Source of the DNA: Candidatus Sumerlaeaceae bacterium
GTDB taxonomy: Bacteria > Sumerlaeota > Sumerlaeia > Sumerlaeales > Sumerlaeaceae
Direction: 5' to 3'
Assembly: GCA_051003195.1 (NCBI GenBank)
Contig: JBPCLP010000047.1
Coordinates: forward strand, 149,745 to 213,744
DNA length: 64,000 nucleotides
A program made the translations under genes and the position numbers. The notes under the pieces are model-generated. The model ran no database searches. It was not told where the DNA came from and saw only the letters and a list, made by a program, of their open reading frames with translations. This document shows positions 30,604-45,217 of this stretch, piece after piece. The stretch's first letter is position 1. Every line of letters begins with the position of its first letter.

Positions 30604-31527
30604 TCAGTCCAGCAGGCCCTCGATCGCTTCGAGGTCTGCTTTCCTGAGTTCTTTCAAGAAATCTCCGAGGTCCTCGCTGCCGCGAGCGACGTCGCCGTGC
30701 AGTTGCTCGATGTCGTTCACGGGACCGCCGGATGTCACCATTTCCCGAACTTCCTCCGCCTTCTTCTCGACCTTCTTGATCGCGTCGGTCACGTCCTGCG
30801 CTGCTTCGGGCAGCTCGTCTTTCGCATATTCGTTAAACCGCTTGATCAGGTCGTTGAGCGCTTCGTCGACGGACTCTTTCAGATTAGTGAGCGCCACATC
30901 CAGTTCCTTATGCAGCTTGTTGTTCGCATCCTCGATCTCGTCGAGCACGCCTTTGACCCCGTCCTTGATATCGTCGTGCATTTCACCGGACGATTTCATG
31001 AGGTCCTGCTGCTTGTCCTCGATCTCCTTCAGCGTATCGTCTACGGCCTTGTGCAGGTCGTCGATTTTCTCGTCGGACTCGGTTAGGTGTTTGCCCATCT
31101 CGGTCACATACTCGTCCGAAAGAGTCTGGAGTTGCTCGAGCTGGTCGCGCAGTTCGTGCAGGTGGCCCGGTATATCGTGCAATTTGCCTTCCAGCGTTTT
31201 TCGAAAACGCGCGACACCTGCGACGATGTCGTTCTCGACTTCGTCCAGCTGGTCGTCGACCTTCTGGATGGCTGCTTTCGCTTCCTCGGTCCGGTCGTGC
31301 AACTCTTCCATCTCGTGGTCGAGGTACTGGTCCATTTCGTCGATGTCCTGGTGCAAATCCTCGAGCCGGTTCTCGATTTTCGCACGCCCGTCGTCGACCA
31401 CCTGGTCAAGATCGACGTTGTGCCTCTTGAAATCTTCCGCGGTCTCGTCGAGCTCTTCGGTATGCTTCCGGACCTCAAGCGCGAGCTCAATCCCCGCTTC
31501 GATCATCTCGCCTAGTGAACTAGACAT
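30604..31527 (-). CDS. Acidic 11-mer-repeat amphipathic helical protein, paralog 1.
   Basis: 307 aa. Same family. Its start overlaps the 3' end of the upstream HExxH gene by 8 nt. Confidence 0.6.
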   Translation of the reverse strand: MSSSLGEMIEAGIELALEVRKHTEELDETAEDFKRHNVDLDQVVDDGRAKIENRLEDLHQDIDEMDQYLDHEMEELHDRTEEAKAAIQKVDDQLDEVENDIVAGVARFRKTLEGKLHDIPGHLHELRDQLEQLQTLSDEYVTEMGKHLTESDEKIDDLHKAVDDTLKEIEDKQQDLMKSSGEMHDDIKDGVKGVLDEIEDANNKLHKELDVALTNLKESVDEALNDLIKRFNEYAKDELPEAAQDVTDAIKKVEKKAEEVREMVTSGGPVNDIEQLHGDVARGSEDLGDFLKELRKADLEAIEGLLD

Positions 31528-32278
31528 GTAAAGTCGCTGAAGGCGCTGAAGTCTTGGCCAAACGACGGTGAGCGGTTACAGTTTTGGTCGAATCGGTTGT
31601 CGTTAGTAGCTTGCGAAGTAAGTGTAAAAAACTGCCTGCATCCGGTGTTTTAACTTCACGTGGACTTGTCTGATCTTTTAAGTATGCTGGCCTCGCTGGG
31701 GTTATTGCCGGTACGCACTCACCTGCGGACTCCTTGAATCCTGCTTGGAATTCAAGCTTGTCGCTCTTGTTAAGTCTATTAAAGCTAGGATGCAATTGCT
31801 GCGCATTCCATGCATCCTTGTGGGTGCAATGATTTTTGTTACTCCAATAAGGATCAAAGCGCAATGCATCATTTCCAGTACGCAGAACTTCTTTTTGAAG
31901 AGGTTTGAACTGCTCTACGTGTTTGTATTCGTGCACTAATACATTCTGCAAGAACGCTACTCGCTCTTCTGGAGACCGCTGATATCCTGTTCGCAAGGCA
32001 TCGGGTCCTACGTAAATTGTGATGTCACAACTACGTTTCGGTTGCCCAAAGCTTTTGTACTCTCTGAGAGGCCCCACACCTGTCACAGCATACGGGAATT
32101 CATCGTCTGTCAGTTTTTCTCGTCTTACAAAATCGCGTCCCTTTAGGTACGGATCATAAATCACTTTTACTCCGTCGGTTGCAAGTCCAGAAAGCTCTAC
32201 CGGACGCTTTGCTGTTTCTAGTGCTGAGATTAAGTTCATGTCAATTTGTTCAACACTGTTATACTTTCTCAGGTCCAT
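31520..32278 (-). CDS. Zincin-like HExxH protein (DUF4157-like putative metallopeptidase); low-GC gene.
   Basis: 252 aa. ITIYVGPDALRTGY...VAFLQNVLVHEYKHVEQ matches, from memory, the DUF4157 HExxHxxQ signature (consensus like LLAHELtHVvQ). GC is about 46%. Confidence 0.5.
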   Translation of the reverse strand: MDLRKYNSVEQIDMNLISALETAKRPVELSGLATDGVKVIYDPYLKGRDFVRREKLTDDEFPYAVTGVGPLREYKSFGQPKRSCDITIYVGPDALRTGYQRSPEERVAFLQNVLVHEYKHVEQFKPLQKEVLRTGNDALRFDPYWSNKNHCTHKDAWNAQQLHPSFNRLNKSDKLEFQAGFKESAGECVPAITPARPAYLKDQTSPREVKTPDAGSFLHLLRKLLTTTDSTKTVTAHRRLAKTSAPSATLHV

Positions 32279-32632: not shown

Positions 32633-32786
32633 AGCTGTCTTCGCTTACTGCCCTGGTATCCCGATGTCGGATTGGATGAATCCGTCAGGATTGCTGGATC
32701 AGTAAACCTTTCAGTCGAGCAGCCGTGGGATAGAAATGCAATGCCTTTCTGCACCCCGGTGTGCCGTCCCAGAGATTCGTTATATA

Positions 32787-33163
32787 TTTCGGTTTGCGGC
32801 GCCCCTTCAGGGCGCGAAAAATGGGGTGCTGTAACCCAGGGCCGCGGATTCCAAAAAGCCGTAATCCTTACCCTGGGCTGTGTCCCGCTGCACCTTCGGT
32901 GCAAAAAACCTGAACTGAATTGTGCCGCATATTTTCGGTTTGCGGCGCCCCTTCAGGGCGCGAAAGATGGGGTGCTGTAACCCAGGGCCGCGGATTCCAA
33001 AAAGCCGTAATCCTTACCCTGGGCTTTGTCCCGCTGCACCTTCGGTGCAAAAAACCTGAGGGCTGCGGATTCCAAAGCCGGAATCCTTACCCTGGGCTTT
33101 GTCCCGCTGCACCTTCGGTGCAAAAAACCTGAGGGCTGCGGATTCCAAAAAGCCGGAATCCTG
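32787..33163 (+). repeat. Tandem array of a structured repeat unit (family 1). Composition X(58 nt)-Y(73 nt), linker, X-Y, Y, truncated Y.
   Basis: Direct read. X = tttcggtttgcggcgccccttcagggcgcgaaaRatggggtgctgtaaccca. Y = gggcYgcggattccaaa(a)agccgKaatccttaccctgggctKtgtcccgctgcaccttcggtgcaaaaaacctga. Hairpins include gcaccttcggtgc and cagggccgcggattcc/ggaatccttaccctg. Confidence 0.85.
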
Positions 33164-33171
33164 GAATTAGA

Positions 33172-34926
33172 TTAACCCGCCGATTCGAGTTCTGTCAGCA
33201 CGCGCAGCAGATCGTCCATCTTGTCTTCCATCGCGTTGCGGTCGTCACCCTCTATCAGGCGCTTCAATTCCGCTGCCTGGTTTTTAACTTCCCTGCTCAG
33301 CGGATGCCCGCCGCGGCTGCCCGCCATGCTCTCTGCGCGACCTACGAGATTGCGCGCCTCATCCACCACGCTCTCCTGAATGCGGCTGCGCAGCATGCCG
33401 GTAACGCGTTCCTTCGCATCCTTCACCATCCGCTGCTTCTCGGCATCCGATAGCCGCGTATCCGTCGCTGCGATGGTGATCTTTTTCTCCACGCCAGTGG
33501 CGAGGTCCTCCGCGCGGCATTCAAGGATTCGGTCCGTCGTCAGTTTAAACGTCACTTCCACGCGTGGCACGCCGCGCGGCGCCGGGGTAATGCCCTCAAT
33601 GCGCAGCAGGTCGAGGAAGGTATTCTCGCTGGCCGTCAATTCCTCTCCCTCGTAAATCGGGAAGCTGATCGCCTCCTGGAAATCGCGGGTTGTCGTGAAG
33701 ATATCCTTCGCCTCGGTCGGGTACGTAGAATTGCGCTCAATAATAGGTGCGAACTGGTCGCTCTGCAAGCCGACACCCAGCGAGAACGGCGTCATGTGAA
33801 TGATGACCGGCTTCTCTTTACCATAGCGTGCGGCCAGCGTATCCTGGATATCACCTTCCAGCGGCGCGAGCACCAGGCTCTGCACTGCTGCGCCCATCGC
33901 CACCACTTCTTCCGGTGAGATATCGCGGTTGGGTTGCTTGTTCACCTTGTCGCGCACCACCTTCTGCACCAGTGGAATGCGCGTCGAACCGCCTACGAGC
34001 AGAACCGTATCGATCTTATCCGCCGTCAGATTTGCATCAGAGATCGCCTTCAATAGCGGCTCTACCGTGCGCTGCACGATGTCAGTAATCAATTCGTCAA
34101 ACTTTACGCGAGTAAGCGTGGTGTCCAGCGTCAGCGGGCCCTTGTCCGTCATGGTCACCGCTTCAACAAGGATGTGAGTTTCCTTCACTTCGCTCAGCTC
34201 GATCTTCGCCTCTTCGGCGGCTTCTTTCAAGCGCTGCATGGCAATCGGATCTTCCTTCAGGTCGATCCCGTGCTGTGTCTTAAATTCCTCCAACAGCCAT
34301 TCCATGATGCGTTTATCAATATCGTCGCCGCCGAGGTGTGTGTCGCCCTGGATCGCAAGCACCTGGAACACGCCGGAAATAACCTCGATAATCGAGACGT
34401 CAAACGTTCCGCCGCCGAAGTCGTAAACGAGAAGCACCTGGTCCTTATTTTTATCCAGACCATACGCCAGCGCGGCGGCCGTCGGCTCATCGATGATGCG
34501 CCGCACCTTCAGGCCCGCAATTTCGCCGGCGTCCTTCGTTGCCTGCCGCTGTGCATCCGTGAAGTATGCCGGCACCGTGATAACCGCCTGCACCAGCTCC
34601 TCGCCAAAGTAGTCCTCGGCATCCGTTCTCAGCTTTTGCAGAATTATCGCGGATATTTCCTGCGGCGTGTATTGCTTCCCTTCGATGTTCACACGGTGCT
34701 GCGTCCCCATGTGACGTTTAATCGAGAAGATCGTGCGACCCACGTTCATCACGGCGCCACGCTTTGCCTTTTTACCGACCAGGATCTCGCCACTCTTGGT
34801 GAAACCGACGACCGATGGTGTCAGGCGCTCGCCCAGGCTGTTCGGCACGATCATTGGGCCGTTCTTTTCGAAAACGGCCACCACGGAGTTAGTGGTTCCA
34901 AGGTCAATGCCCATAATTCGGCTCAT
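33172..34926 (-). CDS. Hsp70-family chaperone (DnaK-like, short C-terminal lid).
   Basis: 584 aa. Motifs IDLGTTNS, DLGGGTFD and VLLVGGSTRIP. The substrate-binding beta domain is present. The lid is shorter than in canonical DnaK and there is no GGMP/EEVD-type tail. Confidence 0.85.
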   Translation of the reverse strand: MSRIMGIDLGTTNSVVAVFEKNGPMIVPNSLGERLTPSVVGFTKSGEILVGKKAKRGAVMNVGRTIFSIKRHMGTQHRVNIEGKQYTPQEISAIILQKLRTDAEDYFGEELVQAVITVPAYFTDAQRQATKDAGEIAGLKVRRIIDEPTAAALAYGLDKNKDQVLLVYDFGGGTFDVSIIEVISGVFQVLAIQGDTHLGGDDIDKRIMEWLLEEFKTQHGIDLKEDPIAMQRLKEAAEEAKIELSEVKETHILVEAVTMTDKGPLTLDTTLTRVKFDELITDIVQRTVEPLLKAISDANLTADKIDTVLLVGGSTRIPLVQKVVRDKVNKQPNRDISPEEVVAMGAAVQSLVLAPLEGDIQDTLAARYGKEKPVIIHMTPFSLGVGLQSDQFAPIIERNSTYPTEAKDIFTTTRDFQEAISFPIYEGEELTASENTFLDLLRIEGITPAPRGVPRVEVTFKLTTDRILECRAEDLATGVEKKITIAATDTRLSDAEKQRMVKDAKERVTGMLRSRIQESVVDEARNLVGRAESMAGSRGGHPLSREVKNQAAELKRLIEGDDRNAMEDKMDDLLRVLTELESAG

Positions 34927-34935
34927 GCGAAGCTG

Positions 34936-35466
34936 TTATCTCCTCTCGTTGTATGCTACGACGACTTTTGCATCCCGCAGAAGTTTGCCCCGGAACACAT
35001 ACCCTTTTTGTCTTTCGCTGATCACCGTTTCATTTTCGTGATCGTCAGACGGCCTGTATTCCACCACCTCGTGCAAGTTCAGATCAACTTTGGATCCTAC
35101 AGACTTCAACTGGTAGAGCCCATACGTTTCAAGCAGGCTGAGCAGCCGAAAGTATATGCTCTCAACACTCTTTAGCCAGTTGTCAATGGCTTCGCTCTGC
35201 GGATAACTGCGGGCCAGGTGAAGCACCCGATCGAAGCTGTCCAGTGTCGGCAGCAGACCGCGGATGAGCTTCTCCAAATCGGCAGGCGAAGCGCTCCGCT
35301 GCTGCAGCTCACGGTTGAGATTCTGGAGCTGCTCATTCTCCATGAGAATTTTTGTGGTCAACTGAACCAGGTCCGACGAATCCTCATCCGGCGAAAGGAA
35401 CACCGGCAAGGGCTGCTCGTCGATGACGAATTCGTCAGCCAGCAGATGGCGCAGTAGTGTTCTCAT
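34936..35466 (-). CDS. grpE: GrpE-like nucleotide exchange factor.
   Basis: 176 aa from the ATG at 35464-35466 (MRTLLRHLL...); the ORF track extends it to 35610. Its start overlaps the stop of the upstream J-like gene as ATGA. C-terminal GrpE-like beta region: GYVFRGKLLRDAKVVV. Confidence 0.65.
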   Translation of the reverse strand: MRTLLRHLLADEFVIDEQPLPVFLSPDEDSSDLVQLTTKILMENEQLQNLNRELQQRSASPADLEKLIRGLLPTLDSFDRVLHLARSYPQSEAIDNWLKSVESIYFRLLSLLETYGLYQLKSVGSKVDLNLHEVVEYRPSDDHENETVISERQKGYVFRGKLLRDAKVVVAYNERR

Positions 35467-36752
35467 GCGCGCATCCGGATGTCGGAGATGGCCTTCTTGG
35501 CCAGCTTGTTCTTTGGATCCAGTTCGAGAACCTTCTGGAACTCGGTAAGCGCGTTCCGGCGGTCGCCTTTGCGCAACAGCGTGTCGGCAATTTCGAAATG
35601 GATTTCCCACTGGTTGGGCAGCATCTTCTGCAGTTCCTTGAAGTGCACCAGCGCCTGCGTGTAGTGGCCGCCTTCCTTCAGCTTTTTACCCACTGCAAGC
35701 CGCGCGCGCATCATGCTGTCCTTCAGCATGTGCGCCTTCGGGTCGGCAATCAGCCCGCGGCGCCACGTATTGAATGCCATTTCGAATTTACCGGCGTTCA
35801 GGTACGCCCAGCCCAGTTGGTTCACCACGTCCAGGTTTTTGGGGTGCTGGTTCTGCAGCTTGATAAATGCCTGCACAGCGTCGTCGTACTTCTTCTCCTC
35901 GATCATCGCGCATGCGAGGGAGTATTGCGCTTCGAAGTCCGAAGGGTTGATCTTGAGCACTTCCTTATAGCTCTCGATCGCCTGCTCTTTTGTTTCTTCA
36001 GTCTGCACGCTTTCAAGCGCTTTGGCACCGTGGTGCTTGTGCACCTCCATCAGGCAATTGCGCAGGTACTCGTCGCCCGGGTTCTTCTCCAAATCCTCTT
36101 TCCAGCGCTTTACCAGTTCTCCCCAGTAGCGCTGCGCCCGCTCACGGTCGCCTGCTTTTTCCGAAGTCAGCGCGAGATTGTGGATGATATCCGTGCTGCC
36201 GGGATCCATCTGCAGCGCGTTCTCCCACAGCTTGATCGCCTCGTCATTCAGGTCATGCAGCGCGTAATAATAGCCCAGGTACTGGTAGCTGAAAATGAGA
36301 TTGCTCTTCGCCCGCTGATGGGTGGAATCGAGCTGGAGCACCGCCACCCAGTCATTGATCGCCTCCGTCCACAGCTTCTTCTGCGTATGGTAAAAACTCA
36401 TCCGAAGGTGATTTGCAATCAGCGCAGGTTTGATCGCTGGATTGGGCGTTCCCGCAGTCAGGTGCTGCTCGAGGCCCTTGATGCGCGCCTGGAGATCTGG
36501 GAGCGGCTCCTCTACTTTCTCCTCATCCGACCACGTAAATTCACCCTTCACATAGTTATATGTGAAGACGTCTTCATGGGCGCGTTTCTTCGGGTCACGA
36601 AGTCGCTCATACGCTTTCTGAATGACCATAAAGCGTTCGGTATGCTTTTCCGGGTCATATCGCTTCACCTGCTCCACATACGCTAACTTGATTTCGTGGT
36701 CGTTAGCGCCTTTGCGGAGGTTCAGAATGGTGTAAGCGTTCTGTTCTGCCAT
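35463..36752 (-). CDS. J-like domain protein fused to TPR repeats (Hsp70 co-chaperone-like).
   Basis: 429 aa. N-terminal J-domain-like helix pattern (YTILNLRKGANDHEIKLAYVEQVKRYDPEKH) in which the canonical HPD tripeptide aligns to DPE. At least 8 TPR-like repeats follow. Confidence 0.7.
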   Translation of the reverse strand: MAEQNAYTILNLRKGANDHEIKLAYVEQVKRYDPEKHTERFMVIQKAYERLRDPKKRAHEDVFTYNYVKGEFTWSDEEKVEEPLPDLQARIKGLEQHLTAGTPNPAIKPALIANHLRMSFYHTQKKLWTEAINDWVAVLQLDSTHQRAKSNLIFSYQYLGYYYALHDLNDEAIKLWENALQMDPGSTDIIHNLALTSEKAGDRERAQRYWGELVKRWKEDLEKNPGDEYLRNCLMEVHKHHGAKALESVQTEETKEQAIESYKEVLKINPSDFEAQYSLACAMIEEKKYDDAVQAFIKLQNQHPKNLDVVNQLGWAYLNAGKFEMAFNTWRRGLIADPKAHMLKDSMMRARLAVGKKLKEGGHYTQALVHFKELQKMLPNQWEIHFEIADTLLRKGDRRNALTEFQKVLELDPKNKLAKKAISDIRMRA

Positions 36753-38870: not shown

Positions 38871-38960
38871 GTCAGGTTCCGGTTCTTCGCGCAGATTCGG
38901 CAAACCGAACTGATTACAAATAACGCTAATATGCTGTCTCAGAATTTCGCAGCATAATTC

Positions 38961-39124
38961 CAGGTTTCCGGCTTTTTGGAATCCGCAGCCCACAGGTTTT
39001 TTGCACCGAAGGTGCAGCGGAACACAGCCCAGGGAAAGGAGGCCACGGCTTTTTGTGGTCGACGCAGCCCTGGGTATATCGATCCAATTACATCGCGCCC
39101 TGAAAGCGGCGCCGGAAAGCGCGC
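38961..39124 (-). repeat. Dispersed copy of the family-1 structured repeat (reverse orientation, partly rearranged). It is preceded by a family-2 fragment at 38872-38934.
   Basis: ttttttgcaccgaaggtgcagcggaacacagcccagggaaagga...cgcgccctgaaagcggcgccggaaa matches the reverse complement of the 32787-33163 units. Confidence 0.75.
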
Positions 39125-44814: not shown

Positions 44815-44927
44815 TATGCCGAAGTTCATAGCTATACTTCAGGAAGCTTTCTAGCTCGGACGGCACACAAAACCAGTGAACGAATTAATGCGACAGGACT
44901 CATTAGGTTGCGCATAATTCAGTTCAG

Positions 44928-45054
44928 TTTTTTTGCACCGAAGGTGCAGCGGAACATAGCCCAGGGTCAGGATTCCGGCTTTTTGGAATCCGCAGCCCTG
45001 GGTTTCACCATCCCATTTTTCGCGCCCTGAAGGGGTGCCGGAAACCGAAAATAT
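44928..45054 (-). repeat. Dispersed copy of the family-1 structured repeat (reverse orientation). It is preceded by a family-2 fragment at 44855-44905.
   Basis: tttttttgcaccgaaggtgcagcggaacatagcccagggtcaggattccggctttttggaatccgcagccctgggtttcaccatcccatttttcgcgccctgaaggggtgccggaaaccgaaa is close to the reverse complement of one X-Y unit. Confidence 0.85.
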
Positions 45055-45217
45055 GGTACTAATTCTGGAACACCACCAGAGCGCACACTTTTAAGGTATT
45101 CAACTCTGCAGATTCGTTTGACACGAGCTAACGCTGCAGGTTAAACACCAGTTTGCCCATGCACGCGAGATCATCATCACGACTGCCACGCCTATGTGAA
45201 GCGGCGCCGTTGGCGGG

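Follow-up and report, generated by a model that had tools for sequence, protein, structure and literature searches.

The His-Pro-Asp (HPD) tripeptide is regarded as the defining hallmark of J-domains and as indispensable to them, to the point that large surveys discard sequences without it, and a 2026 review calls it "enigmatic" whether deviations from it are accidental or selected (PMC10410713, PMC13254874). In the structure of the DnaK-DnaJ complex (5NRO), H33 of this motif contacts the backbone of DnaK L391, P34 contacts P419, D35 contacts R167 and Q378, and K48 contacts D477, the DnaJ residues R22, K26, R27, K48 and K51 as a group facing DnaK E206, D211, E217 and D477 (PMC8215388); R167 has D393 and D481 as further partners, with which D35 competes (PMC7289447). 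A described departure from the motif is HPE, which is functional in DjlB and DjlC with the specialised Hsp70 HscC (PMC10410713, PMC13254874), a system that is insulated from DnaJ (PMC8215388, PMC13254874). Here we describe a three-gene operon (hereafter the triad) on a stretch of 64,000 nucleotides (the window) from a Candidatus Sumerlaeaceae bacterium (contig JBPCLP010000047.1, positions 149,745 to 213,744). It encodes a J-like protein with a tetratricopeptide repeat (TPR) body (hereafter J-TPR), in which Asp-Pro-Glu (DPE) stands at the place of HPD, a GrpE and a 584-residue Hsp70. We consider it, with a probability of roughly 0.58, to be a co-evolved and insulated second Hsp70/J/GrpE machine that works beside the canonical DnaK, and in which Pro-Glu would suffice as the trigger.

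Results

The J-TPR protein and the Hsp70 are 100% identical to the NCBI proteins MGI8908348.1 and MGI8908346.1, which are encoded on a 224-kb contig of a Candidatus Sumerlaeaceae metagenome-assembled genome (MAG). The three genes are tightly coupled on the minus strand, as a preliminary description of this DNA had read them, with a 4-nt ATGA junction between J-TPR and GrpE and 9 nt between the GrpE stop codon and the Hsp70 ATG (Table 1). The same description had seen a non-canonical J protein with DPE in place of HPD, and alignment bears this out. The Pfam DnaJ profile (PF00226) matches J-TPR residues 5-59 with 46.7 bits (cut-off 27.8; profile positions 1-61 of 63). In phmmer alignments with solved J-domains (1hdj, 6z5n and Sis1), "rYDPEk" is aligned to "rYHPDk" and "KRYDPEKH" sits beneath "LRYHPDKN" in the same register; as there is no shift, D33-P34-E35 takes the HPD position and the HPD is not displaced (J-TPR numbering equals that of E. 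coli DnaJ through residue 35). A merely shifted HPD was also considered as such and rejected, given that H37 of "DPEKH" lies two residues past the motif and no Pro-Asp follows it. The AlphaFold2 model of J-TPR (predicted local distance difference test, pLDDT, 92.5; predicted template modelling score, pTM, 0.77) places the tripeptide in the loop between helices II and III, with helices I to IV of the J-like domain at residues 6-9, 18-31, 38-52 and 54-62.

The motif was followed through three sets of relatives, i.e., 120 homologues of 45-100% identity (the named ones all being Sumerlaeota or BRC1), a 66-sequence Sumerlaeota alignment taken from these, and 21 sequences that include distant relatives with identities as low as 26%. 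In the Sumerlaeota alignment Pro34 is present in 66 of 66 sequences and Glu35 in 65 of 66, while position 33 is occupied by D, N, P, T or S, with His in none of the 66. Pro-Glu remains invariant down to 26% identity in the 21-sequence set, where His is again absent from position 33. The J-like domain is the best-conserved portion of the whole protein, and the invariance of Pro34 and Glu35 across Sumerlaeota marks DPE as a family trait and not a product of chance; judging from these alignments, the motif looks to be under selection rather than accidental. The surroundings of the motif are a mixture of retained and replaced residues. F41 (F47 in DnaJ), Y25 and K22 are retained among the 66 sequences and K30 and K/R31 are basic, but of the basic helix II/III face of DnaJ (R22, K26, R27, K48 and K51) only the K22 position is kept, K26, R27, K48 and K51 having become V/I, E, M and Q (J-TPR positions 26, 27, 42 and 45). 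As a side observation, His37 (window positions 36642-36644) is kept in 60 of the 66 Sumerlaeota homologues and not in other clades, and it coincides with two Hsp70 changes that are likewise specific to Sumerlaeota (D393 to H and N170 to D).

A locus scan with one genome per species gave 53 loci, all of them in Sumerlaeota, and in 41 of these J-TPR is followed by GrpE and then by an Hsp70 of the 584-residue type; three of the remaining 12 loci are cut by contig ends. One of the loci, L016, is carried by a complete chromosome of 6.0 Mb (OW818685.1). Among the triads of 40 relatives, the J/GrpE junction is ATGA in nine and a 1-nt overlap in ten, and nearly all the others have a gap of at most 61 nt. 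Tests of flank synteny against the triad of a Sumerlaeaceae relative (locus L003) were negative; the flanks are not conserved, and the three genes therefore travel as a unit. One MAG (SJ135, JADLAR01) holds two complete triads (L035 and L046), with J proteins 40% and 35% identical to that of the window, owing either to duplication or to mixed strains.

In relatives, and apparently in this MAG, the operon is accompanied by a canonical DnaK. In the Sumerlaeaceae relative mentioned above, one 519-kb contig carries both the triad and a canonical DnaK (P0393) of 641-645 residues with the linker DVLLLD, and at locus L008 a canonical DnaK with an insertion in the nucleotide-binding domain (NBD), the DVLLLD linker, the sequence FDIDANG and a long tail lies close to the triad itself (Table 1). 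Relatives of the L008 protein, of 634-645 residues, are annotated in several Sumerlaeaceae MAGs. For the MAG of the window, a DnaK of canonical type (P0414, i.e., MGI8906560.1) shares its accession block with MGI8908346 and MGI8908348, and this MAG thus appears to encode a canonical DnaK as well. The search for a canonical DnaK that the preliminary description had proposed accordingly returned one in the accession block of this MAG and one on the triad's own contig in a relative, and its claim that the Hsp70 is not the housekeeping DnaK stands: a DnaK of about 640 residues with DVLLLD coexists with the triad on the L003/L055 contig, at L008 and apparently here, which makes the 584-residue Hsp70 a specialised paralogue. 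As a canonical DnaK shares a contig with a triad, it is unlikely that the approximately 640-residue DnaKs are binning contaminants in all assemblies. Neither the L055 nor the L008 DnaK gene has an adjacent grpE or dnaJ, and locus L030 (3613-4251) illustrates that another GrpE, of canonical type, can exist besides that of the triad; the canonical DnaK may be served by either.

All 120 homologues of the window Hsp70 (73-100% identity) are about 584 residues long. The protein is 46% identical to E. coli DnaK (a reference sequence whose residues at 25 landmark positions agree with the published ones), 49% to the canonical DnaK of Sumerlaeota and 55.5% to Geobacillus DnaK; canonical DnaKs are 63-72% identical to one another. 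The DVLLLD linker of these proteins is absent and the sequence at its place is KPVIIHM, preceded by a segment that is about 10 residues longer than in DnaK, is conserved throughout the family and contains a short helix (residues 364-368) in the AlphaFold2 model. The lid had been described as truncated, which it is not, as three lid helices are predicted (residues 494-537, 544-560 and 563-583) and the alignment to Pfam HSP70 (PF00012) runs as far as position 593 of the 599 in the profile. Compared with E. coli DnaK, the protein lacks the disordered C-terminal tail and an NBD insertion of approximately 24 residues, the latter lineage-variable and missing from Geobacillus DnaK too.

Among the NCBIfam DnaK equivalogs, the window Hsp70 exceeds the cut-off of NF001413 (664.4 vs. 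648) and falls below that of TIGR02350 (639 vs. 822.55), and it stays below those of the HscA families (444 bits vs. 620 and 708). The loop known as the GrpE-signature motif (PMC8215388), which is deleted in HscA, is present in its alignment. HscC proteins are marked by a 4-8-residue insertion in loop L1,2 of the substrate-binding domain beta (SBD-beta), a 9-residue deletion in helix B and the lack of a GrpE signature or partner (PMC8215388). Compared on architectural features rather than with an HscC profile, the window Hsp70 has no L1,2 insertion, retains the GrpE loop and is encoded with a dedicated GrpE. By these sequence features it classes as DnaK-like, and not as HscA- or HscC-like. The catalytic and allosteric core (K70, E171, T199 and R167, E. 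coli DnaK numbering) is conserved in 41 of 41 triads, and K70, E171 and T199 are 100% conserved among 74 partner Hsp70s; on account of these residues, the undeleted GrpE-signature loop and the dedicated GrpE, a working ATPase is to be expected.

The atypical Hsp70s of all clades (the window's at 33172-33200, L063, L072, L114 and others) end soon after the lid, with acidic/hydrophobic C-terminal motifs, i.e., ..LTELESAG, ..LYELE, ..LYEMEEA and ..MLEELE. We note, as a speculation by analogy, that such a terminus resembles the eukaryotic EEVD tail bound by TPR clamps and could be a docking site for the TPRs of the partner.

The interface between the J-like domain and the Hsp70 was tallied for the 41 Sumerlaeota triad Hsp70s. 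The partners of Pro34 and Asp35 are retained throughout (R167 in 41 of 41, P419 in 41 of 41 and Q378 in 40 of 41). The linker residues L390-D393, on the other hand, are changed to V-I-I-H, with H at the D393 position in all 41, and so are the docking residues, E217 having become Q or R (41 of 41) and D477 R or K (40 of 41). N170 is D in 41 and N147 is T in 38 of the 41 proteins. Read against the losses on the J side, these patterns suggest that the histidine contact and the electrostatic docking were altered reciprocally while the partners of the trigger residues were preserved. The rewiring in Sumerlaeota may extend to a swap of His and Asp, judging from the residues concerned (J H33 to D, linker D393 to H). 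Within a Sumerlaeota sub-clade, J position 33 changes from D to N, T, S or R together with a change of the linker flanks from KP..M to DI..R, and all 38 matched pairs follow this rule (D/P33 with KP-VIIH-M, N/T/S/R33 with DI-VIIH-R). This co-variation is suggestive of co-evolution, its counts being phylogenetically non-independent.

Relatives beyond Sumerlaeota were sought in metagenomes, with distant relatives as seeds and with two search patterns, one of which omitted the motif. Of 69 classified J-like open reading frames, 67 read SPE, PPE, PPD or TPE and two (L118 and L128) read HPD; at the third position, every clade has an acidic residue, D or E. An Hsp70 lies within 4 kb on the same strand at 43 of the 67 loci, often together with a GrpE, and most of the other loci end at a contig edge. 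These partner Hsp70s are 32-57% identical to that of the window, retain R167, Q378, P419 and D393, and share the changes N147 to S/D/T and L392 to T/V as well as a short acidic C-terminus. Exact-sequence clusters place some of them in Bacillota (Dethiobacter, Schaedlerella/Ruminococcus, Lachnospiraceae bacterium 56-18 and Sporofaciens), where they are annotated merely as "Hsp70 family protein"; NCBIfam holds no model dedicated to these atypical Hsp70s. At L098 (7974-9344) and related loci of Bacillota type, the J proteins are His-less as well (PPD), are about 450 residues long and have a SEC-C-type zinc motif (CPCGSGKKYKKCC) at the C-terminus; the genes of these loci stand in the order GrpE, Hsp70, J.

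The GrpE of the triad, which had been described as short, is of ordinary length at 176 residues and is matched by Pfam PF01025 over profile positions 29-164 of 165 (96.9 bits, cut-off 25.8). It scores far under every NCBIfam GrpE equivalog cut-off and is hence a divergent paralogue; it also lacks an AEFENFRKR-type segment that is present in the canonical-type GrpE of L030. The TPR body of the J protein was claimed to hold at least eight repeats, in good agreement with the AlphaFold2 model, where 18 helices form about nine TPR pairs across residues 84-428, and with numerous Pfam TPR matches (TPR_2 at 94.4 bits, TPR_19 at 79.9 bits, and others). Foldseek searches of this model against the PDB returned generic TPR superhelices only (E = 1e-10, template modelling score 0.2-0.33). 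Between the J-like domain and the TPRs lies a conserved extended segment (residues 63-83, window positions 36504-36566) with the pattern FTYNYxxGEFxF...E, in which N66, F72 and E78 are nearly invariant and pLDDT exceeds 90. Going by the model, this segment may occupy the groove of the TPRs or serve as a pseudo-substrate.

Table 1 Coordinates of the triad and its parts, of the neighbouring features, and of canonical DnaK genes in relatives. Positions refer to the window, except for loci L055 and L008
Feature	Position	Strand	Basis or remark
J-like/TPR co-chaperone gene (J-TPR), 429 aa	35463..36752	minus	Open reading frame; Pfam DnaJ and TPR matches
J-like domain, residues 1-62	36567..36752	minus	PF00226, PDB J-domain alignments, AlphaFold2
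Asp33-Pro34-Glu35, codons gac ccg gaa, helix II-III loop	36648..36656	minus	HPD-equivalent position
TPR-like superhelix, residues 84-428	35469..36503	minus	Pfam TPR families, AlphaFold2, Foldseek
ATGA overlap, J-like stop codon/GrpE start codon	35463..35466	minus	Read from the sequence
Divergent GrpE paralogue gene, 176 aa counted from ATG	34936..35466	minus	PF01025, 96.9 bits
Specialised DnaK-type Hsp70 paralogue gene, 584 aa	33172..34926	minus	PF00012, 592 bits
Extra pre-linker segment, residues 353-373, ...APLEGDIQDTLAARYGKEKP	33808..33870	minus	Alignments
Interdomain linker V374-I375-I376-H377, replacing DnaK L390-L391-L392-D393	33796..33807	minus	Alignment
Helical lid, residues 494-583, ending ...LTELESAG without disordered tail	33178..33447	minus	AlphaFold2, alignment to DnaK helix E
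Repeat array, 146/73-nt units	32782-33162		
HExxH protein gene, 252 aa, HEYKH motif	31520-32278	minus	No Pfam or NCBIfam match
Four tandem paralogous genes, very acidic all-helical coiled-coil proteins of ~300 aa	27685-31527	minus	
Canonical Sumerlaeaceae DnaK, locus L055	10001-11926		Contig JBMFRB010000001.1, monocistronic
Canonical DnaK, 644 aa, locus L008	15392-17326		2 kb from triad, monocistronic

On the far side of the Hsp70 gene, the window carries a repeat array, a gene for an HExxH protein, which may be an unclassified metallopeptidase judging from its motif, and four tandem coiled-coil genes, the first of which overlaps with its start the 3' end of the HExxH gene by 8 nt. The coiled-coil proteins give sub-threshold matches to apolipoprotein, ApoLp-III and sll1863-type stress proteins. 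Homologues of the HExxH and coiled-coil genes were found next to the triad in 0 of the 53 related loci. Further copies of the repeat occur at 44912-45055 and 38959-39121 (both minus strand), with 80-98% identity between copies and a GGATTCC...GGAATCC hairpin in the unit, and the repeat is absent from the triad loci of the 53 relatives; within this genome it is an intergenic element with dispersed copies.

No regulatory signal was recognised around the operon, as a search of the window for the CIRCE/HrcA operator with up to three mismatches gave no match and, between positions 31000 and 37500, scans for promoter and terminator consensus sequences found nothing that exceeds shuffled expectation. 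Rfam (at gathering thresholds) and a tRNA scan of the whole window likewise had no matches. Against the PADLOC models of defence systems, GrpE and Hsp70 were unmatched and J-TPR gave one marginal match of TPR type (E = 4e-4). The coiled-coil matches in PADLOC are compositional, and these models link the triad to no anti-phage defence system.

Discussion

From the gene order, the conservation, the coexistence with a canonical DnaK and the residue patterns set out above, we infer docking, ATPase stimulation and insulation of the pair along the following lines. The Hsp70 paralogue would be ATPase-competent and GrpE-dependent, served by its own divergent GrpE, and the TPR superhelix of its J co-chaperone would presumably pick the client or the cellular location. 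The J-like domain would dock at the usual site between NBD, linker and SBD-beta and would trigger ATP hydrolysis by means of Pro34, which is retained, and of Glu35 standing in for Asp35, with Glu35 engaging two conserved Hsp70 residues, Arg143 and Gln349 (R167 and Q378 in DnaK), and Pro34 packing on Pro403 (P419 in DnaK). The histidine contact to the linker backbone would have been given up, the linker being rewritten from VLLLD to VIIH. The docking surfaces would have been rewritten on both sides, i.e., K26, R27, K48 and K51 to V, E, M and Q on the J protein, and E217 to Q, D477 to K/R, N147 to T and N170 to D on the Hsp70. Such rewriting of linker and docking surfaces on both partners would leave the pair insulated from the canonical DnaJ and DnaK.

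Several points weigh against this proposal. K26 is essential in E. coli DnaJ and is lost here. The co-variation between J position 33 and the linker flanks is confined to few clades and may represent as little as one event per clade. Nine Sumerlaeota loci with enough flank carry the J-TPR gene without an adjacent GrpE or Hsp70, from which it follows that the J protein can be retained apart from its partner gene, and the SBD-beta, part of the presumed docking site, is of low confidence in the AlphaFold2 model of the Hsp70. In the published record, H33Q abolishes stimulation in every J-domain tested (PMC8215388), and HPE is the only replacement of HPD that is seemingly tolerated (PMC13254874).

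These same observations give shape to the foremost alternative, namely that the J-like domain is a pseudo-J ("type IV") domain which binds the 584-residue Hsp70 or DnaK without triggering hydrolysis. It would then be a tether, a scaffold or a competitor, as Pam16 is for Pam18, with hydrolysis driven by the substrate or by a canonical DnaJ. The absence of His33 from every member is what one would expect of such a protein, as H33Q variants fail in the systems tested and proteins of this kind are presumed non-functional (PMC8215388, PMC13254874). The loss of the basic K26, R27, K48 and K51 from helices II and III fits as well, as do the nine loci where J-TPR has no adjacent Hsp70, and the pTM of 0.77 suggests that in the model the J-like domain is fixed against the TPR body. 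A decayed motif, however, should drift, yet P34 and E35 stay invariant in relatives of as little as 26% identity and the third residue is acidic in all clades. Moreover, the Hsp70 still has the contacting residues R167, Q378 and P419, the charge losses are reciprocal on the two proteins, and translational coupling to a dedicated GrpE argues for an ATPase that cycles. We therefore regard a pseudo-J domain as unlikely, though deserving of serious consideration. On account of the invariant Pro-Glu, the conserved P419, R167 and Q378, and HPE being functional in DjlB and DjlC, we do not favour the non-stimulating, regulatory or scaffolding role that was suggested for the J protein at the outset.

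The triad might also be part of a larger stress locus, as the preliminary description had it, chaperoning the products of the HExxH and the four coiled-coil genes, in which case the repeat array would have a regulatory function. All these genes share a strand and lie close together in the window, and the sub-threshold resemblance of the coiled-coil proteins to apolipoprotein, ApoLp-III and the sll1863 stress family agrees with such a grouping. But the gap between the Hsp70 and the gene beyond it measures 893 nt, in the close relatives L001 and L003 the Hsp70 is followed by a convergent gene, none of the 53 related loci has these neighbours beside the triad, and the repeat has copies elsewhere in the window and none in the relatives. 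The larger locus is thus highly improbable.

That the phylum simply has in the triad its housekeeping grpE-dnaK operon, preceded by an unrelated TPR gene, is hardly credible: the NF001413 score above cut-off (664 vs. 648), the NCBI name DnaK, the 55% identity to Geobacillus DnaK and the commonness of grpE-dnaK adjacency would all permit it, but the same genomes encode canonical DnaKs of 634-645 residues, TIGR02350 is failed (639 vs. 822), the universal DVLLLD linker is replaced, and 19 of the 40 triads examined show translational coupling between the J-like gene and grpE.

If the reading of the triad as an active, insulated machine is right, the question may extend well beyond Sumerlaeota. The xP[D/E] J-domains would together form a superfamily that spans Sumerlaeota, Bacillota (cultured Lachnospiraceae among them) and further lineages, and their partners would be dedicated Hsp70 paralogues with altered linkers. 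That the histidine of HPD is dispensable when the Hsp70 partner co-evolves, and that the whole superfamily consists of fully active triggers in naturally orthogonal machines that run in parallel with DnaK, is a tentative generalisation to which we give slightly less than even odds. No paper in the literature searched mentions both Sumerlaeota and DnaK, and bacterial J proteins that lack the histidine and are linked to an Hsp70 were not found described there, although coverage was partial and an earlier description is possible. The invariant Pro-acidic motif, the dedicated partners, the reciprocal changes in the Hsp70 and the recurrence across phyla make the question directly testable with purified proteins, and the homologues from cultured gut Lachnospiraceae are among those suited to such tests; cultured strains of Sporofaciens or Schaedlerella provide WP_334635445.1 and WP_394682657.1. 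Should the pair be active, the minimal requirement for J-domain action would need to be redefined, and the triad would offer a natural example of insulation between Hsp70 networks as well as an orthogonal chaperone pair for engineering.

Comparison with known systems

The triad matches the canonical DnaK-DnaJ-GrpE system in its three activities by type, in the J fold with its loop motif, in the operon arrangement and in the residues R167, Q378 and P419, and differs from it in the xPE motif, the VIIH linker and the changed docking residues of both partners. The body of its J protein consists of TPRs, where canonical DnaJ has a glycine/phenylalanine-rich (G/F) region, a zinc finger and a C-terminal domain, and its Hsp70 lacks the disordered C-terminal tail and is accompanied by a canonical DnaK in the genome. 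Co-chaperones that combine a TPR array with a J domain exist in eukaryotes, i.e., DNAJC7 (TPR2) and DNAJC3 (p58IPK), where the J domain is C-terminal and has HPD. J-TPR has no relationship to these in sequence or specific fold, the Foldseek matches being to TPR superhelices in general. A second Hsp70 that shares an operon with a GrpE of its own and serves one specific process is known from Myxococcus xanthus, where grpS-sglK sets a GrpE homologue beside a DnaK homologue.

Pam16/Tim16 (DKE/DKS) and DNAJB13 (HPL) resemble J-TPR in that the J fold is recognisable while HPD is changed non-conservatively (PMC13254874). They are believed to be non-stimulating, and they have also lost the Pro or the acidic residue, both of which J-TPR keeps; unlike theirs, moreover, its gene is joined by translational coupling to those of a dedicated GrpE and Hsp70. 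The E. coli system of HscC, DjlB and DjlC is alike in placing a specialised Hsp70 next to dedicated non-HPD (HPE) J proteins. DjlB and DjlC, however, keep the histidine and are tail-anchored in the membrane, whereas the J protein of the triad has no histidine in the motif. HscC, with its SBD-beta insertion and helix-B deletion, has no GrpE signature and is thought to be GrpE-independent, whereas the triad encodes a dedicated GrpE and an Hsp70 that is, by its sequence, DnaK-like in architecture.

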